Below the pieces are notes generated by a model. That model was given only the letters and a program-made list of their open reading frames with translations, was not told the origin of the DNA and did no database searches. This document shows positions 11,810 to 28,410 of a stretch of DNA of 28,410 bases, piece after piece. This DNA is from Neophaeotheca triangularis. Taxonomy: Eukaryota. Both the position numbers and the translations under genes were made by a program. Position 1 is the stretch's first letter, and every line of letters begins with the position of its first letter. Location of the stretch: NCBI GenBank assembly GCA_054600435.1, contig BAAIJX010000009.1:620001-648410 (forward strand), read 5' to 3'.

Positions 11810-13540
11810 TTACGGCTTCCAGCGCAACATGGTCATGCTCATCCTGGGGAAAGTGAACTTGCCCTTGCCATCCCATTGGCTTTCCTTGAGACCGACCTCC
11901 TCCTTGTCGGCCGTGTTGACGACCTGCCAGTCCTTGCCGGTGACGGTGTAAACGGTGACGCCGCCACCACCGCTGGAAAGCTTGACGCCCTCGAGCTCGG
12001 TGGCGAAATCCTCCTTGTCGTTGACGTTGACGACGCTCAAGCTGACCATGCCGTCGTCGCCCAGGACGGCGGAAACGTCGAGCCAAGGCGTGTCGACGGC
12101 GGCGCGGATCCATTGCGGTTGCGTCTCGCCTTCGTAGCTCGGGCACGAGACGTGGGAGTTGACGGTCCAGCCGCGCATGTACTTGCTGAAGAGCAGGAGG
12201 GGCCACCAGGGGGTTTGCTTGACGAGGCCGTTTTTGGTCGTCATGAGTGGCGAGATGACGTTGACGCTTTGGGCGATGTTGGCCATGCCCATGTACTTGC
12301 TTTGGCGCACAAAGACGTTGAGCCAGACGGCGACGGCGAGCGCGTCGGAGAGGGTGTAGAGTTCTTCTGCGCCTTTGTCGCCGGGGGCGCGGACAGGGTC
12401 CCAGACGTTCCATTCGTCGAAGCAAATGGTTTGGCGGGGGACGGCGGCGGGGACGCCGTTTTCGATGCGCGCGAGGTCGATGAGGCCGCCGCAGATTTGG
12501 ATCGCGCGCTCGGCGGAGAGGGGCGCGAGGGCGTTTTGAATGTTGTCCTTGCTGGCCGTGTAGATGTGGATGCTGTGCATGGCTATGAGGGAGGCGGTGG
12601 TGTCGCCGCCGAGCGAGTGGGTGTCGAATTTGACGCAGTTCTTGAGGACGTGGAAGTCCCACGCGCTGTGGCCCGTCTCACCGCAGAGGACGAGTTCGAT
12701 GGAGGGGTCGAGGAGCTTGAGGGCTTTGGCCCATTGGTAGGCCTTTTTGGCGTAGTCTTCTTTGGTCATCTGAGGGTGAGGGTGTTAACGATCCGTTCTA
12801 CGCTGCTAGGTTGTGTTTGGGTGACTGACCTGCTCCACTTGCCATGGTCCCCAGGTCTCGTTGCCGAGAGCCCAGTACTTGACGTTGTATGGCTTCTCGC
12901 GGCCATACTTGCGGCGAAGGTTGGCGTAGTAAGTGTCCTGGGTAGAGTTGCAGTACTCAACCCATCCGAGAGCTGCAATTCTTAGTATTCCGCCAACTCG
13001 TTCAAATCGTGAAATCGATCAAAGCAAAGCCTACCTTGCTCAAGTGTGCCTGCAAATTGTCAACCTACTGTGTCCTGGCTATTGCCAACTTTTTATACGT
13101 TTGTGAGATTACACACCAGTGCCCATGTTCAAGCAAAAGTAGGGCTCGGTGCCTACAATCTCGCACCACTTCATAAACTCATCAGTGCCGAATTGGTTCG
13201 TCTCGACACCCAACCAAGCCAACTCTGGGCGGTGAGGCCTGTTCTCGCGTGGCCCGACACCATCGGTCCATTGGTATGTGGCGCAAAAGTTACCGCCCGG
13301 GTAGCGGACTACGGGGACCTTGAGCTCCTTCATGGCCTCAATGACATCCTTGCGGAAGCCGTTCTCATCAATGAGGTCTTTGTTGGAGTTTTCCGGGTCG
13401 TAGAGACCGCCGTAGATGCAGCGGCCCATGTGCTCGGTGAAACCGCCATAGATGTTTTCGTTGATCTTGCTGAGCTTGTGCGCGGGGTTGACGGAGATGG
13501 AAGGCTGCTCGCCCTGGGAGAGTTTGGTGTAGGTGGACAT
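11810..13540 (-). CDS. GH51 alpha-L-arabinofuranosidase, intracellular (AbfC-like), complement(join(11810..12769,12830..12972,13035..13049,13117..13540)), 513 aa
   Basis: [35 protein letters not shown], acid/base motif [12 protein letters not shown], nucleophile motif [18 protein letters not shown]. Three GT-AG introns with phases that join correctly, including a 15-nt microexon. No signal peptide. Confidence 0.95.
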
Positions 13541-16051
13541 TTTGGTAGGGATGGTGAATGAATAGGGTAGCTTGGGCTGAGGATGAGAAAAGGCAGAAAG
13601 GGGAGAGAGAGAGAGAGATGGGAGGGAAGAAGAATGTTTTGGAGGGAAAGGTGGTAGTGTAAGTAGTAGTAAAGAGTACTAACTACCTACCTATGTTCTT
13701 GTCAAGGTGGATGCGGTCAAGCAGACGCAGCGGCCAAGTCAAAGCAACTTACGGTCAGAAAGCGGCCTTGGGCATGTCACTAGTCATAGGCACTACGGTT
13801 GGACAAGAGGTCCACCGCGTCCACTTGGTGCGGATTCGAGCGAAGAGGATTCGGGTCCAAGACCGGTCGTGGTGAAGGGAGAGATGAACAAGATGGATGG
13901 AAGGGACTAGTATTATTATTGTTATTATTTCAAGTGCCAGGTGTCGCCTGGCTGTGGGGTGTGTGGGTTACAGTGGGTGAGAGCACGACTGGTGGGTGAG
14001 AGACCGCGACTGGTGGGTAGCAAGGGTATAAGGTACTAGTAGCTACTATGTACCTTACCTAGCTAGCCGTGGGGATGACCTACCTCCCATCTCCATAGCC
14101 GAGGTCATGACGTGCGGCCTTCCCTCCAATCGCAGCGACATGAGGCCGTCTTTATTTACTACCGGGAAAAGTCGCGTGCGAAGATTGGATGCAAATAAGG
14201 TATCATCTGGCGAGGCGTCGACAGTGGACCGCGTGGTGGACTCGCGACTCTTGACTCGTGAGATGTGATCGGAGCAAGCCCAAGGCTGGTAGACTCCGAC
14301 TGGTAAACTGTAGTACCTAGAGTAGGTAGCAGTGGCGTTCCAACCTTACAGAAGCCGCTGATGTCTGCCGTTATCCCAAAAAGTGTACCTCGTCTGTACC
14401 CCCAGAACAGGCACCATGGCCGAATAATAAGCTACTACTCAAGTACCCGTGGACATTCATCCAACACAACTGCAAGCTGAAAGTCGGTCGCGAGATCGGT
14501 GACGGCGTGGCTGCAAGCCAAGGTGTAGGTGCATGCTATCTAGGTAGATTGAACGATCTCTGACAACAGTCCATGAGTAGTGAGTGAATGAGGTCTGGTA
14601 TTTTATGATTACGATTGTACAAATGCAACAAATGCAAGGCGACGTGTTACAAGTAGGTGCGTAGGGGATACGATGATATGATCATTAATAGGGTTTTTTT
14701 TAACAGAGACAGGCTCGCCTTGGCCACGGTCAACAACAAGCGTGAGTGGCTCATTTAGCACAAGCGTCAAAGAGATGGGTAGGGAGGTAGGGAAGTAGGG
14801 AGGTACTACTGTAGTTATGGCACCGGCAACATCATTACCCGAAACAGCAGAACAGCTTCCAGTCCCCGCCGTTAGGTTGTCGTGGTCGACAAGTCGAGTC
14901 CGCTTCCACGTCTGCCCCGCGGACCAACTTGGCCCACGTCTCGAAAACAACTTAACGCCGGGCGGGCTCCGACCCACAATTCCCATCCACCCCTCGAGAG
15001 TCTCCAACACATACCGGAGGTATCGACTTGGAGTTCTGGAGCCAGAGTGGGCAAGCTTTTCCGGGGCGGGCATCGAGTCAAGAACTCCAAGATACAGAGG
15101 TACGAGTTACAAAACGAACATGCATGCATCCATGCATCCATGCATGTGCTTGGCCAACATGTACAGTACCTACCTTTAGTAAACAATTGCCGCTTTCCCA
15201 CCACGGATGCAATTAATAATCCTGTACATACCAAGAATCGTCTTCAAGAACTGCATCCGAGGCGTCCAAGCAACTCTCGTGCACTCTTCGCCCTGTGTCT
15301 TGTGCGAGCTAAGCCGAGTTACAAGGGTACCTACCTACCTACCTTTTCTCAATAAATGTACACATCTGGATCTCACCTCGACTAAAAACAATCAATTAGT
15401 CGAGTCTCACTCGTGTGTAGCCCTCCCGGCCGACCATCACAAAGTCTCGACGTTGGACGGTTGACAGCGATGCATCAATCGTGATTTGCCCTGTAGTATC
15501 ATTCCACAATCAAAAGTGGTCCTGCCGCCGAGTAGTAGTTATGGGTCAGTTCACGATTGTCGAGCAACACAAACAGGCCTCGTGTACGTGCATGTCACAT
15601 GTGCTCGTGCCCGCTATTCTTTGATGACAGTAGTATCATCATCTGGCGAACATTGTTTTAACAAAGCTAGCGCATCTCCACTTTTTGCCCTCTACTCCCC
15701 GAGTCCTCCCAGATTCTCTAGACTACTAGTACTCTTCTGAGTTCTGACCCCCCGGGGCCCGCTGTGGAAACTCTACGATGACGACTCGCCGCGAGCCCCG
15801 TGCCCTAATTATTTTGGTCGTCAGGACTATCGCCAGACGCCAACATAGCTCGGGAGCGAATTGACAGACAGGAGGCGGGTTTTGTTGTTAGTGCGGCCCG
15901 AACTCAATATGCAGTGCTATGCAAGACGTGCCTCTTGCCGGCCGGCAGGTAGGATATAAAGTCTCGACAACGCCCTTGTTTGCTTGTTGCCTTTTTCCTT
16001 TTCGGATCAGGAGGTTTCTGATATCATCTCGTCCACTTTTCTTTGCCCATC

Positions 16052-20087: not shown

Positions 20088-20874
20088 GATTAGATGCCGG
20101 TGGGCCGGTTGTGCTCGGTGGGTTGAGGTGTCTGATTGGTGTCGCTGAAGTTATGGCTGCGCTGGGAGTGAGCGGGAAGCTGTGGGTTGATTTGTGAACA
20201 TTCCATTCTCGCGCAGGCTTGGCAATGGAGTCCGGAATTTGCAAATTTCGACTTCTGTCTTGGTCTGGTATTGGAGGCCGTCGTGTATCTTCAGTCCTGC
20301 CTGGCGAAGAAGAACAGGCGCTGAATCGTTTGTGCTTCTCGACACCCTTCGACTACTCGTGTGGCTGCTTGCTGCCGAGAATTATTCGGTTTTGCGTCGA
20401 GAGCGAGCGGAAAAGTTGCGAGGCGGCTCGATGCGAGCGACTCCACCCGCTGCTTTCTCCCATTCGATAATTGATAATAGCAAATGGCCGTCCTTTTCTT
20501 CTCGGCGGCTTTTGAAAAGCAGGTGTGTTCCTGTTCCCCTGCGAGGAAGAGGCGACTGTCTCCTACCTATCTTTCGGAGCTGGATACGTGCTTGGGTGTA
20601 GAGTCGATAGGGTGGAGCTGCTCGCGCCGGGGTACAGATTCAACTCGAGTTAGTTGGTGACAGGAGAAGCGCGGTTTTGGGGGGAAAAAGTTCAATTGTG
20701 TTGCTGGATACCGCAAAACGCCAGAAACTCATACGCATCAGTCTAGGAAAGCAAGCGACCAAAAAGCAAAAAAGCAAAAAAACAAAAAGCATCAACCACA
20801 GACTCCCGTCCTAAACGCCCGCCCGTACCTCCTCGCTATTCCACCCATCCTCTCTTTCCTACCCATCTACCTCC

Positions 20875-21702
20875 CTACACCCTCTCCTCCTCCTCGACCT
20901 CACCACCGTGCTTCATCATCTTGCCATAGCAGTCCATGCCAACCCGGCACTTGCCGCTGGCGTTGACCCCGCCATCAACCGCGCCCTCGGCTCCCGCCTC
21001 TTCGCCACGCTCCACGTACAGCGGGCCATGGCGCTGCACCTCCCTCACTTCCAAGAGCCCGTCGAGCTCGACGCCATCGACGATTTCGCGCTTGTACGGC
21101 CGGACGTCGCCGATCGTCCCCTTGATCTGGTGCGGTTCGTTGTTCCAGGGGTTCTCGTAGCGCTGGAACTGGCCGTGGTGCTGGAAGCCGCCGGCCTGGC
21201 GGGGCTGCATTTGGCTCTTGCCGGAGCCCGAGTCGTAGTCGTCGGAGGAGGAGGAGGTGGAGGAGGTGACGTCGCGCTTGTACGGTCGGATGTCGCCGAT
21301 CGTGCCCTTGATCTGGTGCGGTTCGTTGTTCCAGGGGTTCTCGTAGCGCTGGAACTGGCCGTGGTGCTGGAAGCCCCCGGCCTGGCGGGGCTCGAGGGGG
21401 CCCTTGTCGTCGGCGCCAGAGGCCGAGTCGTCGTCGCTGCTGCTGCTGCTGCTGCGCTTGCGCCCGATGATGCCGGCCAGTGGGGCTGGCATCACGTGCG
21501 CGAAGACTTCGCCGTCGCGCGCTGCCGCGCCGCCCGCGTAGGCCATGCCGCCGGCTTGGCGCGGCTTCAGCTGCTGCTGCTCCTCGTCCGGGAGGGGAGG
21601 GTTGAGGGTGCCTGTGCGGTGGAAGCGGCCGATGCGCACGGGAGCGCCGAAGACGAGGGGGTTGAGGAGCGCGAGGCTCATGATGGCGGTGGTGCAGTGC
21701 AT
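20875..21702 (-). CDS. Secreted Kex2-processed repeat protein (KEP) / peptide precursor, 275 aa
   Basis: AAG-ATG start, signal peptide MHCTTAIMSLALLNPLVFG|AP; three PR|QAGG...KR cassettes separated by Ser/Asp-rich spacers; strong C/G-ending codon bias in this frame. Confidence 0.8.
   Translation of the reverse strand: MHCTTAIMSLALLNPLVFGAPVRIGRFHRTGTLNPPLPDEEQQQLKPRQAGGMAYAGGAAARDGEVFAHVMPAPLAGIIGRKRSSSSSSDDDSASGADDKGPLEPRQAGGFQHHGQFQRYENPWNNEPHQIKGTIGDIRPYKRDVTSSTSSSSDDYDSGSGKSQMQPRQAGGFQHHGQFQRYENPWNNEPHQIKGTIGDVRPYKREIVDGVELDGLLEVREVQRHGPLYVERGEEAGAEGAVDGGVNASGKCRVGMDCYGKMMKHGGEVEEEERV
21088..21390 (-). repeat. Intragenic direct repeat: two 117-nt copies (21274-21390 and 21088-21204), period 186 nt
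   Basis: Both copies encode PRQAGGFQHHGQFQRYENPWNNEPHQIKGTIGD(I/V)RPYKR; differences are a few synonymous changes plus I/V. Confidence 0.95.
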
Positions 21703-22743
21703 CTTGGTGAGGAGAAGGGGGTGTTGGTGGTTGTGGCTGCTGTTGGTTGGGGTTGGGATGGATTGGATTTGGTTTGGTTTGGACTGAGTGTGACTTGTTC
21801 TTTCCTTGGTGATTGCTGAGATGACAGGGAGAAGAAAGGAAGACGACCGGCAAGGGCGGAGAGAGAGGTACTTAAGGGTGGAAAAGGAGATGAAAGGTCC
21901 TCACGTTTTGGACACATCGAGGACACTAACTCGCAGAGGTACTCCTGGCTTCTTATGCGATTAGTAGGACACTTACTGTCTCGACTCTACGCGATGCAAG
22001 CACTACACCACTCAAGAGGCTGAGGACATAGTTGTGTTGACGTTACAGCCAGGAGAGCTAGTAATGACCCCTTTCTGATTGGCTTCGCGTGGAGCTTTGG
22101 CATAATTCAACAGTTGCCTCACAATTTGAACTTCAATCAAGTGATGACAAGCTCCACCAAGCCTTTTCGATAACCTGAACGACGGAATGGTCGCAGTTGA
22201 GTATTTTTGTTCAGCGCAGATGCGACACCAGCAATGCAAGACATTGTGCTCGAACTTGTCAACGAAGGTGTCCTAGATGCCGGCCGTGAGCTACACGCTA
22301 TCCCCGACACCACCACACACGTACGCCGGGATCGCTTTGGTGAATGCGCACGACAACTTCAATTCATAATCAGATGGAATGCTCCGTCCCGACTCTGTGG
22401 CTCCGGGCCGCTGATGTCCTCCCAAACACCTCAGATCATGACTACTTCCTCGCTTTCTACAGGTGCTACAACGGCGGTACGACAAGTCTCTTGCAAGCAG
22501 CTAGAAGAACAACCAAAATTAAGACTCAGACTTTTAGTGCAAACTCCAGTAACTCGGACAGTATGTAAGTAAAAAGACACTCAACAGAAAATCAAAGCAA
22601 CAAAAGCAAAAGCAAAAGCAAAAATCAACACAAAATCAGAAGCAGCCACTTCTCCAAAAACACAAAACCTCCAAACAACCTTAACACGCTCCTCAAGCTC
22701 CCGAACAAGCTCCAAATCCGCACCATCCACCCGCAACAAAGTT

Positions 22744-23700
22744 TCACTCCTCACGAACAGACTCCTCCTCCTCCTCCTCCAAAACCGGCCCGAGCCCACC
22801 AAGCCCCAACCTGCCCATACCCTGCTCCCTCAACTTCTTCAACTCGACATCCAAACCCTCGACCTCGAAATCCACGTCGTCGAGATGCACGCCCTGGAAT
22901 TCGACGTGCACGCCCTTGATATCCTCGGCAGCGTCCTCGGCAGCTTCCTCCGGGCGGTTTCCGCCGACCGCACCCTCGTTCTGCACACCTCTCTCGGCGA
23001 GCTTGGTAGGCGTGGTGGCCGTTGCCTCGGACGAGGTGCGGACGGTCGGGATCGGCGACGTGCGCCTGGTGGGGATCAGCGGGTTGCGGTCGACGGCGCC
23101 CTGGACAATCTCCGGGTGGTCCCGGTAGGGCTGGAAGGCATGGCGTTCTGGGTTGCGCGCCGCGAGCTGCGCGTTCTCCGTCGCCGCCTGGCGGGTGGTG
23201 CTGGCTTTGGAGTTCGCCTGCTTCGTGACGACGACGGTGACGAGGGTGCTGAGTACGGCCGTGGGTAGGCTGGCCGGGGCGACGCTTTCCTCGGAAGAGG
23301 TGTGGACGGTGGGGGTCGGGGAGGTGCGGACGGTGGGGATCGGGGAGGTGCGCCTGGTGGGGATCAGGTTGACGGCATTGTTGGCGGTCAGGACCACGGT
23401 GAACGGGTTGCCGTTGCGGTTGATGCCGGCGACGGTGGTGACGACCGGGTCGTCGGCGAGCAAGAGCTCGTCAAGGGGCAAGAGCTCGTCGTCGATGGGT
23501 GGGTTGCCGTAGAACTTCTTGCGGTTGAAGTCTTTGATGGGTGCGAACTCCTCGGGAGGCTCACGGTAAGGCTCCTCGGCCCCGTTGCCTTTGATTGCAT
23601 TTCCCATGCGGTCTGAGACATGGAGCATTTTCTCGCGGAACCCGGCTTCCGCGCCAGAGAGTGTGGCGCAAATGGCCGCGAGGATGGTGGTGGTCTTCAT
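22744..23700 (-). CDS. Secreted Thr/Pro-rich repeat protein with acidic C-terminus, family not recognised, 318 aa
   Basis: ACC-ATG at 23700, signal peptide MKTTTILAAICATLSGAEA|G; LIPTRRTSPIPTVRTS present twice (23320-23367, 23032-23079); codon bias supports this frame. The upstream TTG start in the ORF track runs through 5'UTR microsatellites. Confidence 0.75.
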   Translation of the reverse strand: MKTTTILAAICATLSGAEAGFREKMLHVSDRMGNAIKGNGAEEPYREPPEEFAPIKDFNRKKFYGNPPIDDELLPLDELLLADDPVVTTVAGINRNGNPFTVVLTANNAVNLIPTRRTSPIPTVRTSPTPTVHTSSEESVAPASLPTAVLSTLVTVVVTKQANSKASTTRQAATENAQLAARNPERHAFQPYRDHPEIVQGAVDRNPLIPTRRTSPIPTVRTSSEATATTPTKLAERGVQNEGAVGGNRPEEAAEDAAEDIKGVHVEFQGVHLDDVDFEVEGLDVELKKLREQGMGRLGLGGLGPVLEEEEEESVREE

Positions 23701-23713
23701 GGTTGCGGTTGTC

Positions 23714-23755
23714 GTTGTTGTTGTTGTTGTTGTTGTTGGTTGGTTGGTTGGTTGG
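23714..23755. repeat. (TTG)n + (TTGG)n microsatellite in the 5'UTR of the 318-aa secreted protein
   Basis: Direct reading; (CAA)n immediately upstream of the ATG on the coding strand. Confidence 0.9.
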
Positions 23756-24815
23756 TGGTGGAGTCTGTAAGGATCGTTGGGCTTGCGGTGTTGGTGAGTT
23801 CTGGGACTTGAGAGTAAAGGGAAGGACTGATGGAGGAAGCAGGAAAAAGAAGCCTTCTTATACTTGCCCGGGAGACCAGCGCTAAGCACGTACAACTAGG
23901 GTCACAGCACTGGCTTACCTTCGATGCTCGCAAATGGTCAATGCTAAGACGCTGTCGAGATCTACAAGGCAGTTGATGACTAGGTTGCATTCAGTGGGCG
24001 TCTGCTGGTGCTCGAAGACCGCTTAGAAGCCAAAGGCTGGAGATCAAGATTACCCTCTTACTGACCTAGGCTTACATCTCCGGCAACTGGGATGGTTCGC
24101 AATCTCACACCTCACGAGCAGGCGTAGGCGAAGCTACAACCAGCGGTCATTGGTTGGTCGTAAGCCCACGGCAGAAACTCGAGAGGAGCATCACCGGGGG
24201 TGGTATTTGCAGATGCAAGACGAGTCCACATTCGCGCACCCGGCAAGCTGGACGGTCCAGTAGGGCTGGCTCCTCGTGGGTTGAGTAGATGTTCAAATCG
24301 CGTTCAGGGCTAGAGCATGTCCTCAAGACGCCACTCAGGATCATGACCCAGGTCACCGGGAAAGCGAGCATTGCAGAATTGGGATGATGAGTTACTTTCC
24401 CCGGGCTCAGGCGAACCGTACATATTCAGCGAGGTAATTTTCTTTCCAGCGTGTCAACAGGCTTGAATTCTCCCTCATCAAAGCCTCGCTCAAGCACTCC
24501 CTAGCTTGTTAAAGATGCCAGGTAAGGTCTCCTACTCATCAATTCAACCTTTCAATCGATTCTCTCGGCGCATTTACAGGTTATAAGCTCTGCTGGATAG
24601 TATATTTCCGGCTTACTTTAAGTGCTAGTTAGTACATTTGCTGTATATGCTGTTGATATCCTGATACTGTTGTGCTCGATCTCTTTTCGTATCGCTTCGT
24701 GTCGCGCTGCTCAAACCTCGTCAACCTTTCCCATCTAACGCATGTCATGTCTTCAAATCATAAATACAAACCACGACATAGTCGAACCCCCATCCCCTCA
24801 CTACTCCCTCCACCC

Positions 24816-27637: not shown

Positions 27638-28383
27638 ATGGACCCCACGTCGCCACTGCAGTCCAATCGGTCCACCATACGGCCCGAGAAGCGTGACAAG
27701 CGACCATCTTTTGTCAAGTCAATGTCAATAATGAAGCCATCTCCAAGTCCCTCCTCTACTCCAGCTACTTCCGCTACTATTTCCGAGGCCTTGAAGAGCC
27801 CTACCATGCAAGACTCGCCCTTGACTCTGCAATCGAGGCCCCAAGTCTTTGAACCAAAGGTCGTTGGCTTATACAGGGACCTGTTCCGCGTGAGTTTTCG
27901 ACTCGTCTTATCATCTTAACTAACTAACTAACTGAATAAATAAATAAATAAATACATAACTAACTTGGCTTTAGAACGTCCAAGATGATGAGAAACCCGA
28001 AGGCTTCTGGCGAGAGCTCTTCTTGCTCAAACCAGACACTCTTCGTCTACGAACCATCCTTCACGACACAGACGCCCACTTCCTCCTCCACATACCGCAC
28101 CATTCGCAGCAACTGGTAGTCAACGCCACGGCGCAAATCAAAGCAGGCCAAGCTCCTTCGGACGAGAATGCGCTCGAGGTGAGGTCTCCTTATTGCCATT
28201 CTGTCCTGGCCTGTCGACTCATGACTTAGACTTTGACAGTCTTCTTCGCCGTCGTTCTGGCCAAGAAGTATACGAACCCGAGCTCTGATATCATCGAGCT
28301 TCTGGCTGGTTTGGATCAGGTTGATGCCGTCTTTACTGAATTGGTTGCTGTGCTTGATTACGCGATCAAAGATGGAAGAACGC
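27638..28383 (+). CDS. ARMH3/DUF1741-family armadillo-like protein, 5' part, join(27638..27889,27975..28178,28230..28383,...); continues past the right edge
   Basis: Spliced product ...SPLTLQSRPQVFEPKVVGLYRDLFR|NVQDDEKPEGFWRELFLLKPD...DENALE|TLTVFFAVVLAKKYTNPSSDIIELLAGLDQVDAVFTELV. Canonical donors GTGAGT/GTGAGG and TAG acceptors. Alternative in-frame start at ATG 27806. Confidence 0.8.
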
Positions 28384-28410
28384 GTGAGTCTGCCCCCCGG
28401 TCTCCCCCCC

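Follow-up and report, generated by a model that had tools for sequence, protein, structure and literature searches.

Layout of the putative precursor gene

The gene considered here lies within a 28,410-nucleotide stretch of the Neophaeotheca triangularis genome (contig BAAIJX010000009.1, forward-strand positions 620,001 to 648,410), referred to below as the window and used as the coordinate system throughout. It consists of a single open reading frame (ORF) on the minus strand whose product has a hydrophobic N-terminus, a pro-leader, three cassettes separated by acidic spacers, and an acidic tail. The best reading of this gene is an orphan Kex2-processed repeat protein (KEP), that is, a fresh member of a known and diverse fungal class and not a new class. 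A preliminary description made from the DNA letters had placed the ORF, given core lengths of 32, 35 and 35 amino acids, and named the motifs at the cassette ends; all of these were accurate when the ORF was read again, and the interpretation attached to them is supported in part. The parts of the gene are as follows.

20875..21702, minus strand: whole coding sequence, 275 codons without interruption and a stop codon at 20875-20877
21646..21702, minus strand: residues 1-19, hydrophobic N-terminus by the Kyte-Doolittle scale, putative signal peptide
21559..21645, minus strand: residues 20-48, 29-residue pro-leader ending in L-K-P-R
21454..21558, minus strand: cassette A, core residues 49-80 (32 amino acids) plus RKR at 81-83
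21385..21453, minus strand: spacer 1, residues 84-106, Ser/Asp-rich, isoelectric point (pI) 4.05, ending in L-E-P-R
21274..21384, minus strand: cassette B1, core residues 107-141 (35 amino acids) plus KR at 142-143
21199..21273, minus strand: spacer 2, residues 144-168, Ser/Asp-rich, pI 4.14, ending in M-Q-P-R
21088..21198, minus strand: cassette B2, core residues 169-203 (35 amino acids) plus KR at 204-205
20878..21087, minus strand: acidic C-terminal tail, residues 206-275 (70 amino acids), pI 4.5

The sequence P-R-Q-A-G-G begins at residues 47, 105 and 167. P-R occurs three times in the whole protein, and dibasic sites also number three (RKR 81-83, KR 142-143 and KR 204-205); all six fall at cassette borders. 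The fourth residue before the presumed cut (P4) is Leu, Leu and Met at the three P-R sites.

The two B cores, located by tblastn at 21384-21280 and 21198-21094, are 97% identical. Over the 39 codons from PR to KR, 4 of 117 nucleotides differ; three of these differences are synonymous and the fourth is a conservative Ile/Val exchange. The proportion of differing sites is thus 0.124 for synonymous (pS) and 0.011 for non-synonymous (pN) positions, with a Fisher p of about 0.03 that rests on very small numbers. The spacers preceding B1 and B2 are homologous, and can be aligned only with indels and many replacements. These figures bear out the preliminary description, which had reported B copies that differ mainly at synonymous sites next to spacers that have diverged. 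In addition, the Arg codon of B1 at window position 21286 (codon 139) appears, in a second sample of the same organism label introduced below, as the codon that B2 carries in the window, which is compatible with either gene conversion between the B cassettes or a shared ancestral polymorphism.

Cassette A is the diverged member of the set. Its core is Ala/Gly-rich with a hydrophobic C-terminal half, and the unit is 29% identical to unit B1. When A is compared to B by BLASTP, a 13-residue junction alone aligns (E 1e-4). A three-way alignment of the units contains 14 invariant columns, which include P-R-Q-A-G-G, a Gly, a Pro, G-x-I-G and K-R. The A and B cassettes use different synonymous codons for the junction Pro and Gln, so it is the amino acids, not the DNA, that are conserved. 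As the junction is the sole block common to otherwise different cores, a shared processing requirement is a simpler explanation for its conservation than a shared bioactivity. The borders are the most conserved parts of the precursor, and both the borders and the B cores are under constraint.

The segments also differ in composition. The cassettes, including their basic ends, have a pI of 9.5-10 and alternate with the acidic spacers. Tyr, Trp, Phe and His are abundant in the cores. The B peptide carries three acidic and three basic residues, three His and five aromatic residues, with a grand average of hydropathy of about -1.6 and a net charge of about zero at neutral pH. The tail contains one N-x-S sequon at residue 247 and Cys at 252 and 258. 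A single-sequence AlphaFold model (mean predicted local distance difference test score 42.8, no helix or strand elements) predicts no folded domain, which is compatible with disorder and is weak evidence by its nature.

The reading frame and its relatives

Base composition within the ORF follows the reading frame closely. GC content at codon positions 1, 2 and 3 is 0.68, 0.46 and 0.91, with a third-position value (GC3) of 0.906. The six neighbouring genes that carry Pfam domains have GC3 values of 0.56-0.70, and flanking intergenic DNA lies at 0.49-0.56 in all three phases. The codon bias is therefore local, phase-specific and stronger than in the housekeeping neighbours. In fungi, GC3 bias of this strength would point to a well-expressed gene. 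Three long frames, the gene and two others, overlap the same GC-rich stretch; one of them, a 263-amino acid ORF on the plus strand, is an antisense shadow, since its 0.91 GC falls at codon position 1.

Further indications come from a second sequencing run (X2), which has the same organism label and derives from another sample. Its contigs were compared to the window over positions 20600-22000 and cover 30 of 30 bins of this stretch. Three X2 contigs that lie within the coding region each differ from the window by 6 to 14 letters. Length changes inside the coding sequence consist of deletions of 12, 3 and 3 nucleotides and, in the contig covering spacer 2, 9 gap letters; spacer 1 shows in-frame 12- and 3-nucleotide deletions. 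Every one of these coding-sequence indels is a multiple of three, and all are confined to the leader or the spacers. Many X2 differences are carried by about half of the contig depth when summed, and each place has two contigs, one 6 and the other 14 letters away from the window, a pattern that points to two haplotypes or two diverged copies within the sample.

Substitutions show a similar distribution among regions. Among those listed inside the coding sequence from related runs (at least 15, a partial tally), 8 are silent and 7 replace a residue, the latter falling before Met8 and in the signal region, cassette A, spacer 1 and the tail. The B cores hold 3 of the listed substitutions, all synonymous. 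The tail holds five, 3 of which are non-synonymous, and is the least constrained part of the protein. A protein identical to residues 8-275 has also been predicted and deposited in a public collection, as a 268-amino acid form starting at Met8. Given the local, phase-specific GC3, the in-frame indels of X2, the pattern of substitution and this deposited identical protein, the gene is real and its frame is maintained.

An annotation artefact or a recent ORF with no selected function is accordingly a very improbable account of the locus. It would agree with the lack of detectable homologues, with the overlap of two other long frames on the GC-rich stretch, and with the RNA data, in which a metatranscriptome run (X6, 0.05 of sampled words) gave only low-complexity matches. 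These matches fall in an A-rich stretch at 20758-20788, a Ser-codon repeat and a GGTTT repeat, and are uninformative on expression. However, such an ORF would not be expected to confine its high GC3 to one phase, to tolerate only in-frame indels in the diverged sample, or to hold pN well below pS in its B cores. The missing homologues are also what would be expected of a fast-evolving small protein in this host, as the conserved neighbour discussed next has named relatives that are only distantly similar.

Searches for relatives returned essentially the protein itself. A word-based search of 5.8 billion clustered proteins found only this protein, and an exhaustive phmmer search of 1.84 billion representatives found no relative beyond it. 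One phmmer match (P0003, E 3.6e-6, 29% identity) was rejected as an unrelated simple-repeat protein. Of 71 pattern matches in metagenome contigs of the Joint Genome Institute (JGI), none was confirmed. At E values up to 10, Pfam gave only Sex_peptide at E 0.31, where its 11.7 bits fall short of the cut-off of 25, and Dehydrin at E 8.7, and the PDB gave one match at E 2.1; all three were dismissed as chance. No paralogue is present within the window, and three motifs of the protein are absent from the full-text literature searched. In the ESM Atlas the whole protein has pheromone and MF-alpha clusters as neighbours, at low scores of 0.79-0.83 that offer a lead only, and residues 84-205 gave no usable match. 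The peptide family, which the preliminary description did not recognise, has no relative in the protein collections, Pfam, the PDB or the JGI metagenomes searched.

The identity of the host accounts for part of this isolation. For the neighbouring DUF726 protein, the best named relatives come from rock-inhabiting and black-yeast Dothideomycetes, among them Oleoguttula, Hortaea, Recurvomyces and Baudoinia, at 57-64% identity. One further relative of the DUF726 protein (P0006) is 82% identical. As the named relatives are only 57-64% identical, the host lies in a part of the Dothideomycetes that is poorly sampled, and the gene is an orphan partly for that reason: a fast-evolving small protein would be undetectable at that distance. 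As far as sequence comparison goes, the gene is lineage-restricted.

Predicted processing and comparison with known precursors

The layout suggests a pre-pro-protein of the KEP type that gives rise to soluble extracellular linear peptides through kexin, a proposal that we consider to have about an even chance of being correct. The steps after translation (secretion, cleavage and release) we infer from the sequence. Residues 1-19 would serve as the signal peptide, and a kexin (Kex2-type protease) of the late Golgi would cut after RKR83, KR143 and KR205 and probably also after each (Leu/Met)-x-Pro-Arg site, at residues 48, 106 and 168; a Kex1-type carboxypeptidase would trim the basic ends. The predicted products are one 32-residue Ala/Gly-rich peptide and two near-identical hydrophilic peptides of 35 residues with many His, Gln/Asn and aromatic residues; the two acidic spacers would be discarded, with the acidic tail as a further fragment. 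The new N-terminal Gln would be converted to pyroglutamate unless a Ste13-type dipeptidyl aminopeptidase first removed Q-A, in which case the peptides would start with G-G. Ste13 removes X-Ala dipeptides (PMC6339444). The preliminary description had held that the cores lack X-Ala leaders, which is not strictly true, because every core opens with Q-A and so, formally, with an X-Ala dipeptide. The released peptides would most likely be extracellular, serving as a signal or interaction factor. A membrane-lytic role or a role as a hydrophobic coat is unlikely, since the B peptide is strongly hydrophilic and nearly uncharged at neutral pH.

The first step depends on the N-terminus. Nine-residue Kyte-Doolittle means reach 2.2 across residues 3-19, and Val at -3, Gly at -1 and Pro at -5 fit a cut after residue 19. 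Two features make this region atypical as a signal peptide and count against a secreted precursor. The hydrophobic stretch is not preceded by a basic residue and is followed by three Arg within 10 residues, and the deposited Met8 start would make it shorter still. Both would suit a real gene whose product is not secreted, namely a cytosolic or membrane-anchored disordered protein in which the basic pairs have no processing role. However, the residues at -5, -3 and -1 form a typical cleavage region, the language-model neighbours (a lead only, as noted) are pheromone and MF-alpha clusters, and the position of every dibasic and P-R site at a repeat border is hard to explain without processing. 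Such a non-secreted protein is for these reasons judged improbable.

The second step depends on cleavage at P-R. The preliminary description had asserted that Kex2 also cuts after P-R, and this is documented for M-G-P-R, which is cut by the Pichia enzyme; this cleavage is gone in a kex2 disruptant, and the residue at P4 matters (PMC6624476). An extended Kex2 motif, LxxR, has likewise been described, in which Pro counts as one of the five best alternatives at P2 and the residue at P4 is preferably aliphatic (PMC8528282). The Leu, Leu and Met found here at P4 fit this motif.

Several other observations weigh against the proposal. P-R is a weaker, secondary Kex2 site compared to K-R (PMC6624476, PMC8528282). 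At the dibasic sites P4 is not aliphatic, being Pro at both B-cassette KR sites and Gly at RKR. There are only two near-identical repeats and one diverged unit, compared to the three or more that KEP pipelines ask for. No homologue was found in which conservation of the cut sites could show. To these are added the partial nature of the substitution tally and the RNA run that returned only low-complexity matches.

The secondary nature of the P-R site bears most directly on a different outcome, in which the secreted protein is cleaved solely at the three dibasic sites or escapes cleavage altogether. It would then yield 58-60-residue pieces with acidic N-terminal extensions, or remain an intact, disordered cell-wall or effector-like repeat protein, with P-R-Q-A-G-G as a conserved part of the repeat. 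The lack of a predicted fold is consistent with such a protein. So is the adjacent gene P0004 (described below), also an orphan that looks secreted, bears repeats and has an acidic tail, which suggests a local pair of secreted disordered proteins. In contrast, A and B share just the junction, with an aliphatic P4 each time, as a processing site predicts, and the spacers change fast and by indels, whereas the cores do not. This outcome is consequently regarded as rather unlikely, although it is the strongest of the alternatives to a precursor excised at both kinds of site.

Excision at both kinds of site can be set beside several described systems. Two surveys define the fungal KEPs. One reports 1193 KEPs in 226 species, with peptides of 25-50 residues forming one size class (PMC6339444, Le Marquer et al. 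2019), and the other 7878 KEPs in 1345 strains, of which 2560 stand alone without homologues (PMC7329392, Umemura 2020). The protein resembles these in its hydrophobic N-terminus, its cores separated by KR or RKR, its repeats compacted in one region, and its lack of a Pfam family and of homologues. KEP definitions call for a signal peptide that gives entry into the endoplasmic reticulum, and the N-terminus here is hydrophobic and atypical in its charges. They call for KR, RR or KK between repeats, and here the sole dibasic sites lie at the cassette ends; they also call for repeats of 8-100 residues that make up at least 15% of the protein, and here the two B cores make up 25% and the three cores (102 of 275 residues) 37%. 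Unlike typical KEPs, the cores are bracketed by two kinds of site, with (Leu/Met)-x-P-R upstream and KR downstream, there are 23-25-residue acidic spacers to be discarded, and the cassettes number only two plus one. Both pipelines require at least three repeats (PMC6339444; PMC7329392), and an automatic pipeline would probably count two here. The motifs of the protein are absent from the supplementary text of both papers, which is possibly incomplete.

Precedents also exist for the predicted products. In Coprinopsis cinerea, linear KEP peptides that start with Gln were found pyroglutamated, and in Pichia, which has no glutaminyl cyclase, pyroglutamate forms spontaneously (Vogt et al. 2022, PMC9769878), which is the maturation that the preliminary description had predicted for the present peptides. 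However, the Coprinopsis peptides reach about 18-20 residues compared to 32-35 here, the Gln in the present protein follows P-R, and no sequence similarity to them was found by phmmer. Rep1 of Ustilago maydis is a pre-pro-protein whose cleavage at KEX2 sites yields peptides 34-53 residues long (PMC3133707), so that 32-35 residues is not an unusual core length. Rep1 differs in having 12 repeats that give amphipathic, amyloid-forming wall peptides, in contrast to the hydrophilic B peptide, and in belonging to another phylum; phmmer against the 1.84 billion representatives showed no similarity between the two. The soluble B peptide is likewise unlike candidalysin and the repellents.

The yeast alpha-factor precursor has a signal peptide, which is putative in the present protein, and shares with it a pro-region, KR-bounded repeats and possible X-Ala trimming; it has a weak language-model resemblance to it (score 0.79). 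There is no match to Pfam MF_alpha or MF_alpha_N even at E values up to 10, and in place of a repeated X-Ala/X-Pro run there is a single Q-A. Alpha-pheromone peptides are 9-24 residues long (PMC6339444), in agreement with the earlier remark that the present cores, at 32-35 residues, are much longer. Le Marquer et al. also note that KEPs resemble animal prohormones (PMC6339444). Multi-copy neuropeptide precursors, which are processed by proprotein convertases, share with this protein the excision at basic sites on both sides, the acidic spacers and the N-terminal Gln. This is an analogy of design only, and no homology was found.

With pyroglutamate KEP peptides, KEP peptides of 34-53 residues, Kex2 cleavage at aliphatic-x-P-R and orphan KEPs all published, the novelty of the gene is modest. 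Its peculiarities are slight: the two-sided excision with aliphatic-x-P-R upstream, the 23-25-residue acidic spacers and the two-plus-one arrangement of cassettes. If the peptides are made, the gene would represent a long-core KEP excised at both ends, from little-studied Dothideomycetes, and its sequence permits the expected product masses to be calculated for mass spectrometry. Moreover, two-repeat precursors that use aliphatic-x-P-R sites would be missed by the published pipelines, which require at least three repeats and consider dibasic sites only.

Genomic neighbourhood

The gene is surrounded by a DUF7514 protein, a P-loop kinase-like protein, an arabinofuranosidase of the glycoside hydrolase family 51 (GH51) type and a sugar transporter of the major facilitator superfamily, with a protein prenyltransferase alpha subunit, the DUF726 protein and a SAM-domain protein as further neighbours. 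The window contains 59 frames of at least 120 amino acids. Pfam was run on 37 frames other than the gene, and the 21 unscanned frames overlap scanned ones. The 37 scanned frames, which reach 20.8 kb to one side of the gene and 6.7 kb to the other, gave no match to DUF3328 or to a tyrosinase, methyltransferase or prolyl oligopeptidase family, and P0004 contains no DUF3328 either. With no tailoring family among the scanned frames, there is no sign of a nearby cluster for peptides that are ribosomally synthesised and modified after translation (RiPPs).

This bears on the possibility that the protein is a RiPP precursor, whose cores would undergo modification or cyclisation by tailoring enzymes encoded at other loci, as happens in the dikaritins and epichloecyclins. 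Known dikaritin cores are far shorter than the 32-35 residues found here, which, together with the missing tailoring families, makes this the least probable of the alternatives considered. In its favour are the abundance of Tyr, Trp, Phe and His in the cores and the KEP-like layout; in one survey, DUF3328 genes accompany 22% of the KEP genes catalogued (PMC7329392).

Immediately upstream of the gene, on the same strand, lies P0004 (22744-23700, minus strand, 318 amino acids), also an orphan. Its signal peptide looks canonical, its tail is acidic and Glu-rich, and its GC3 is 0.84; it contains two copies of a Pro/Thr/Ser-rich unit with an RR pair, seen in the DNA as a 24-nucleotide tandem repeat at 23297-23365. 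P0004 has no Pfam family and no homologue among the 5.8 billion proteins, and shows no similarity to the gene under study (best E 23). In the most extended form of the interpretation, the gene would define a lineage-specific family of unusually long (32-35 residues), linear, pyroglutamate-capped extracellular peptides cut out from between acidic spacers, in the manner of a prohormone, by two kinds of kexin site. The hydrophilic B peptide, with its many His and aromatic residues, would diffuse as a signal or respond to metal or pH in a stress-tolerant Dothideomycete, and the gene would form a small co-regulated secreted-peptide locus with the adjacent orphan gene. Taken as a whole this is an unlikely combination.

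Synteny was examined by comparing 25 metagenome loci (L001-L025) around DUF726 orthologues with window positions 20100-24800. The gene beyond DUF726 (window 28047-28409) is conserved in 12 of the 25 loci. The gene under study, P0004, the prenyltransferase subunit and the sugar transporter occur in none of them, and the ORFs downstream of DUF726 in the metagenome loci are different genes. As nothing downstream of DUF726 is shared with the window, the two orphan genes sit at a synteny break. Three of the metagenome loci carry a conserved protein of ~248 amino acids that is unrelated to the window genes (L012 12441-13187, L013 18757-19500 and L022 18264-19010, all on the minus strand). It has a signal-like N-terminus, a KR in its first 40 residues, a Gly/Ser-rich low-complexity stretch and a GC3 of 0.73-0.77.

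Elsewhere in the window, two frames at 11810-13678 on the minus strand match arabinofuranosidase domains (Alpha-L-AF_C, E 1.9e-37; ASD1_dom, E 0.0011) and probably represent one intron-split GH51 gene. A 409-amino acid frame on the plus strand over this gene, with a GC content of 0.815 at the first codon position, is an antisense shadow.

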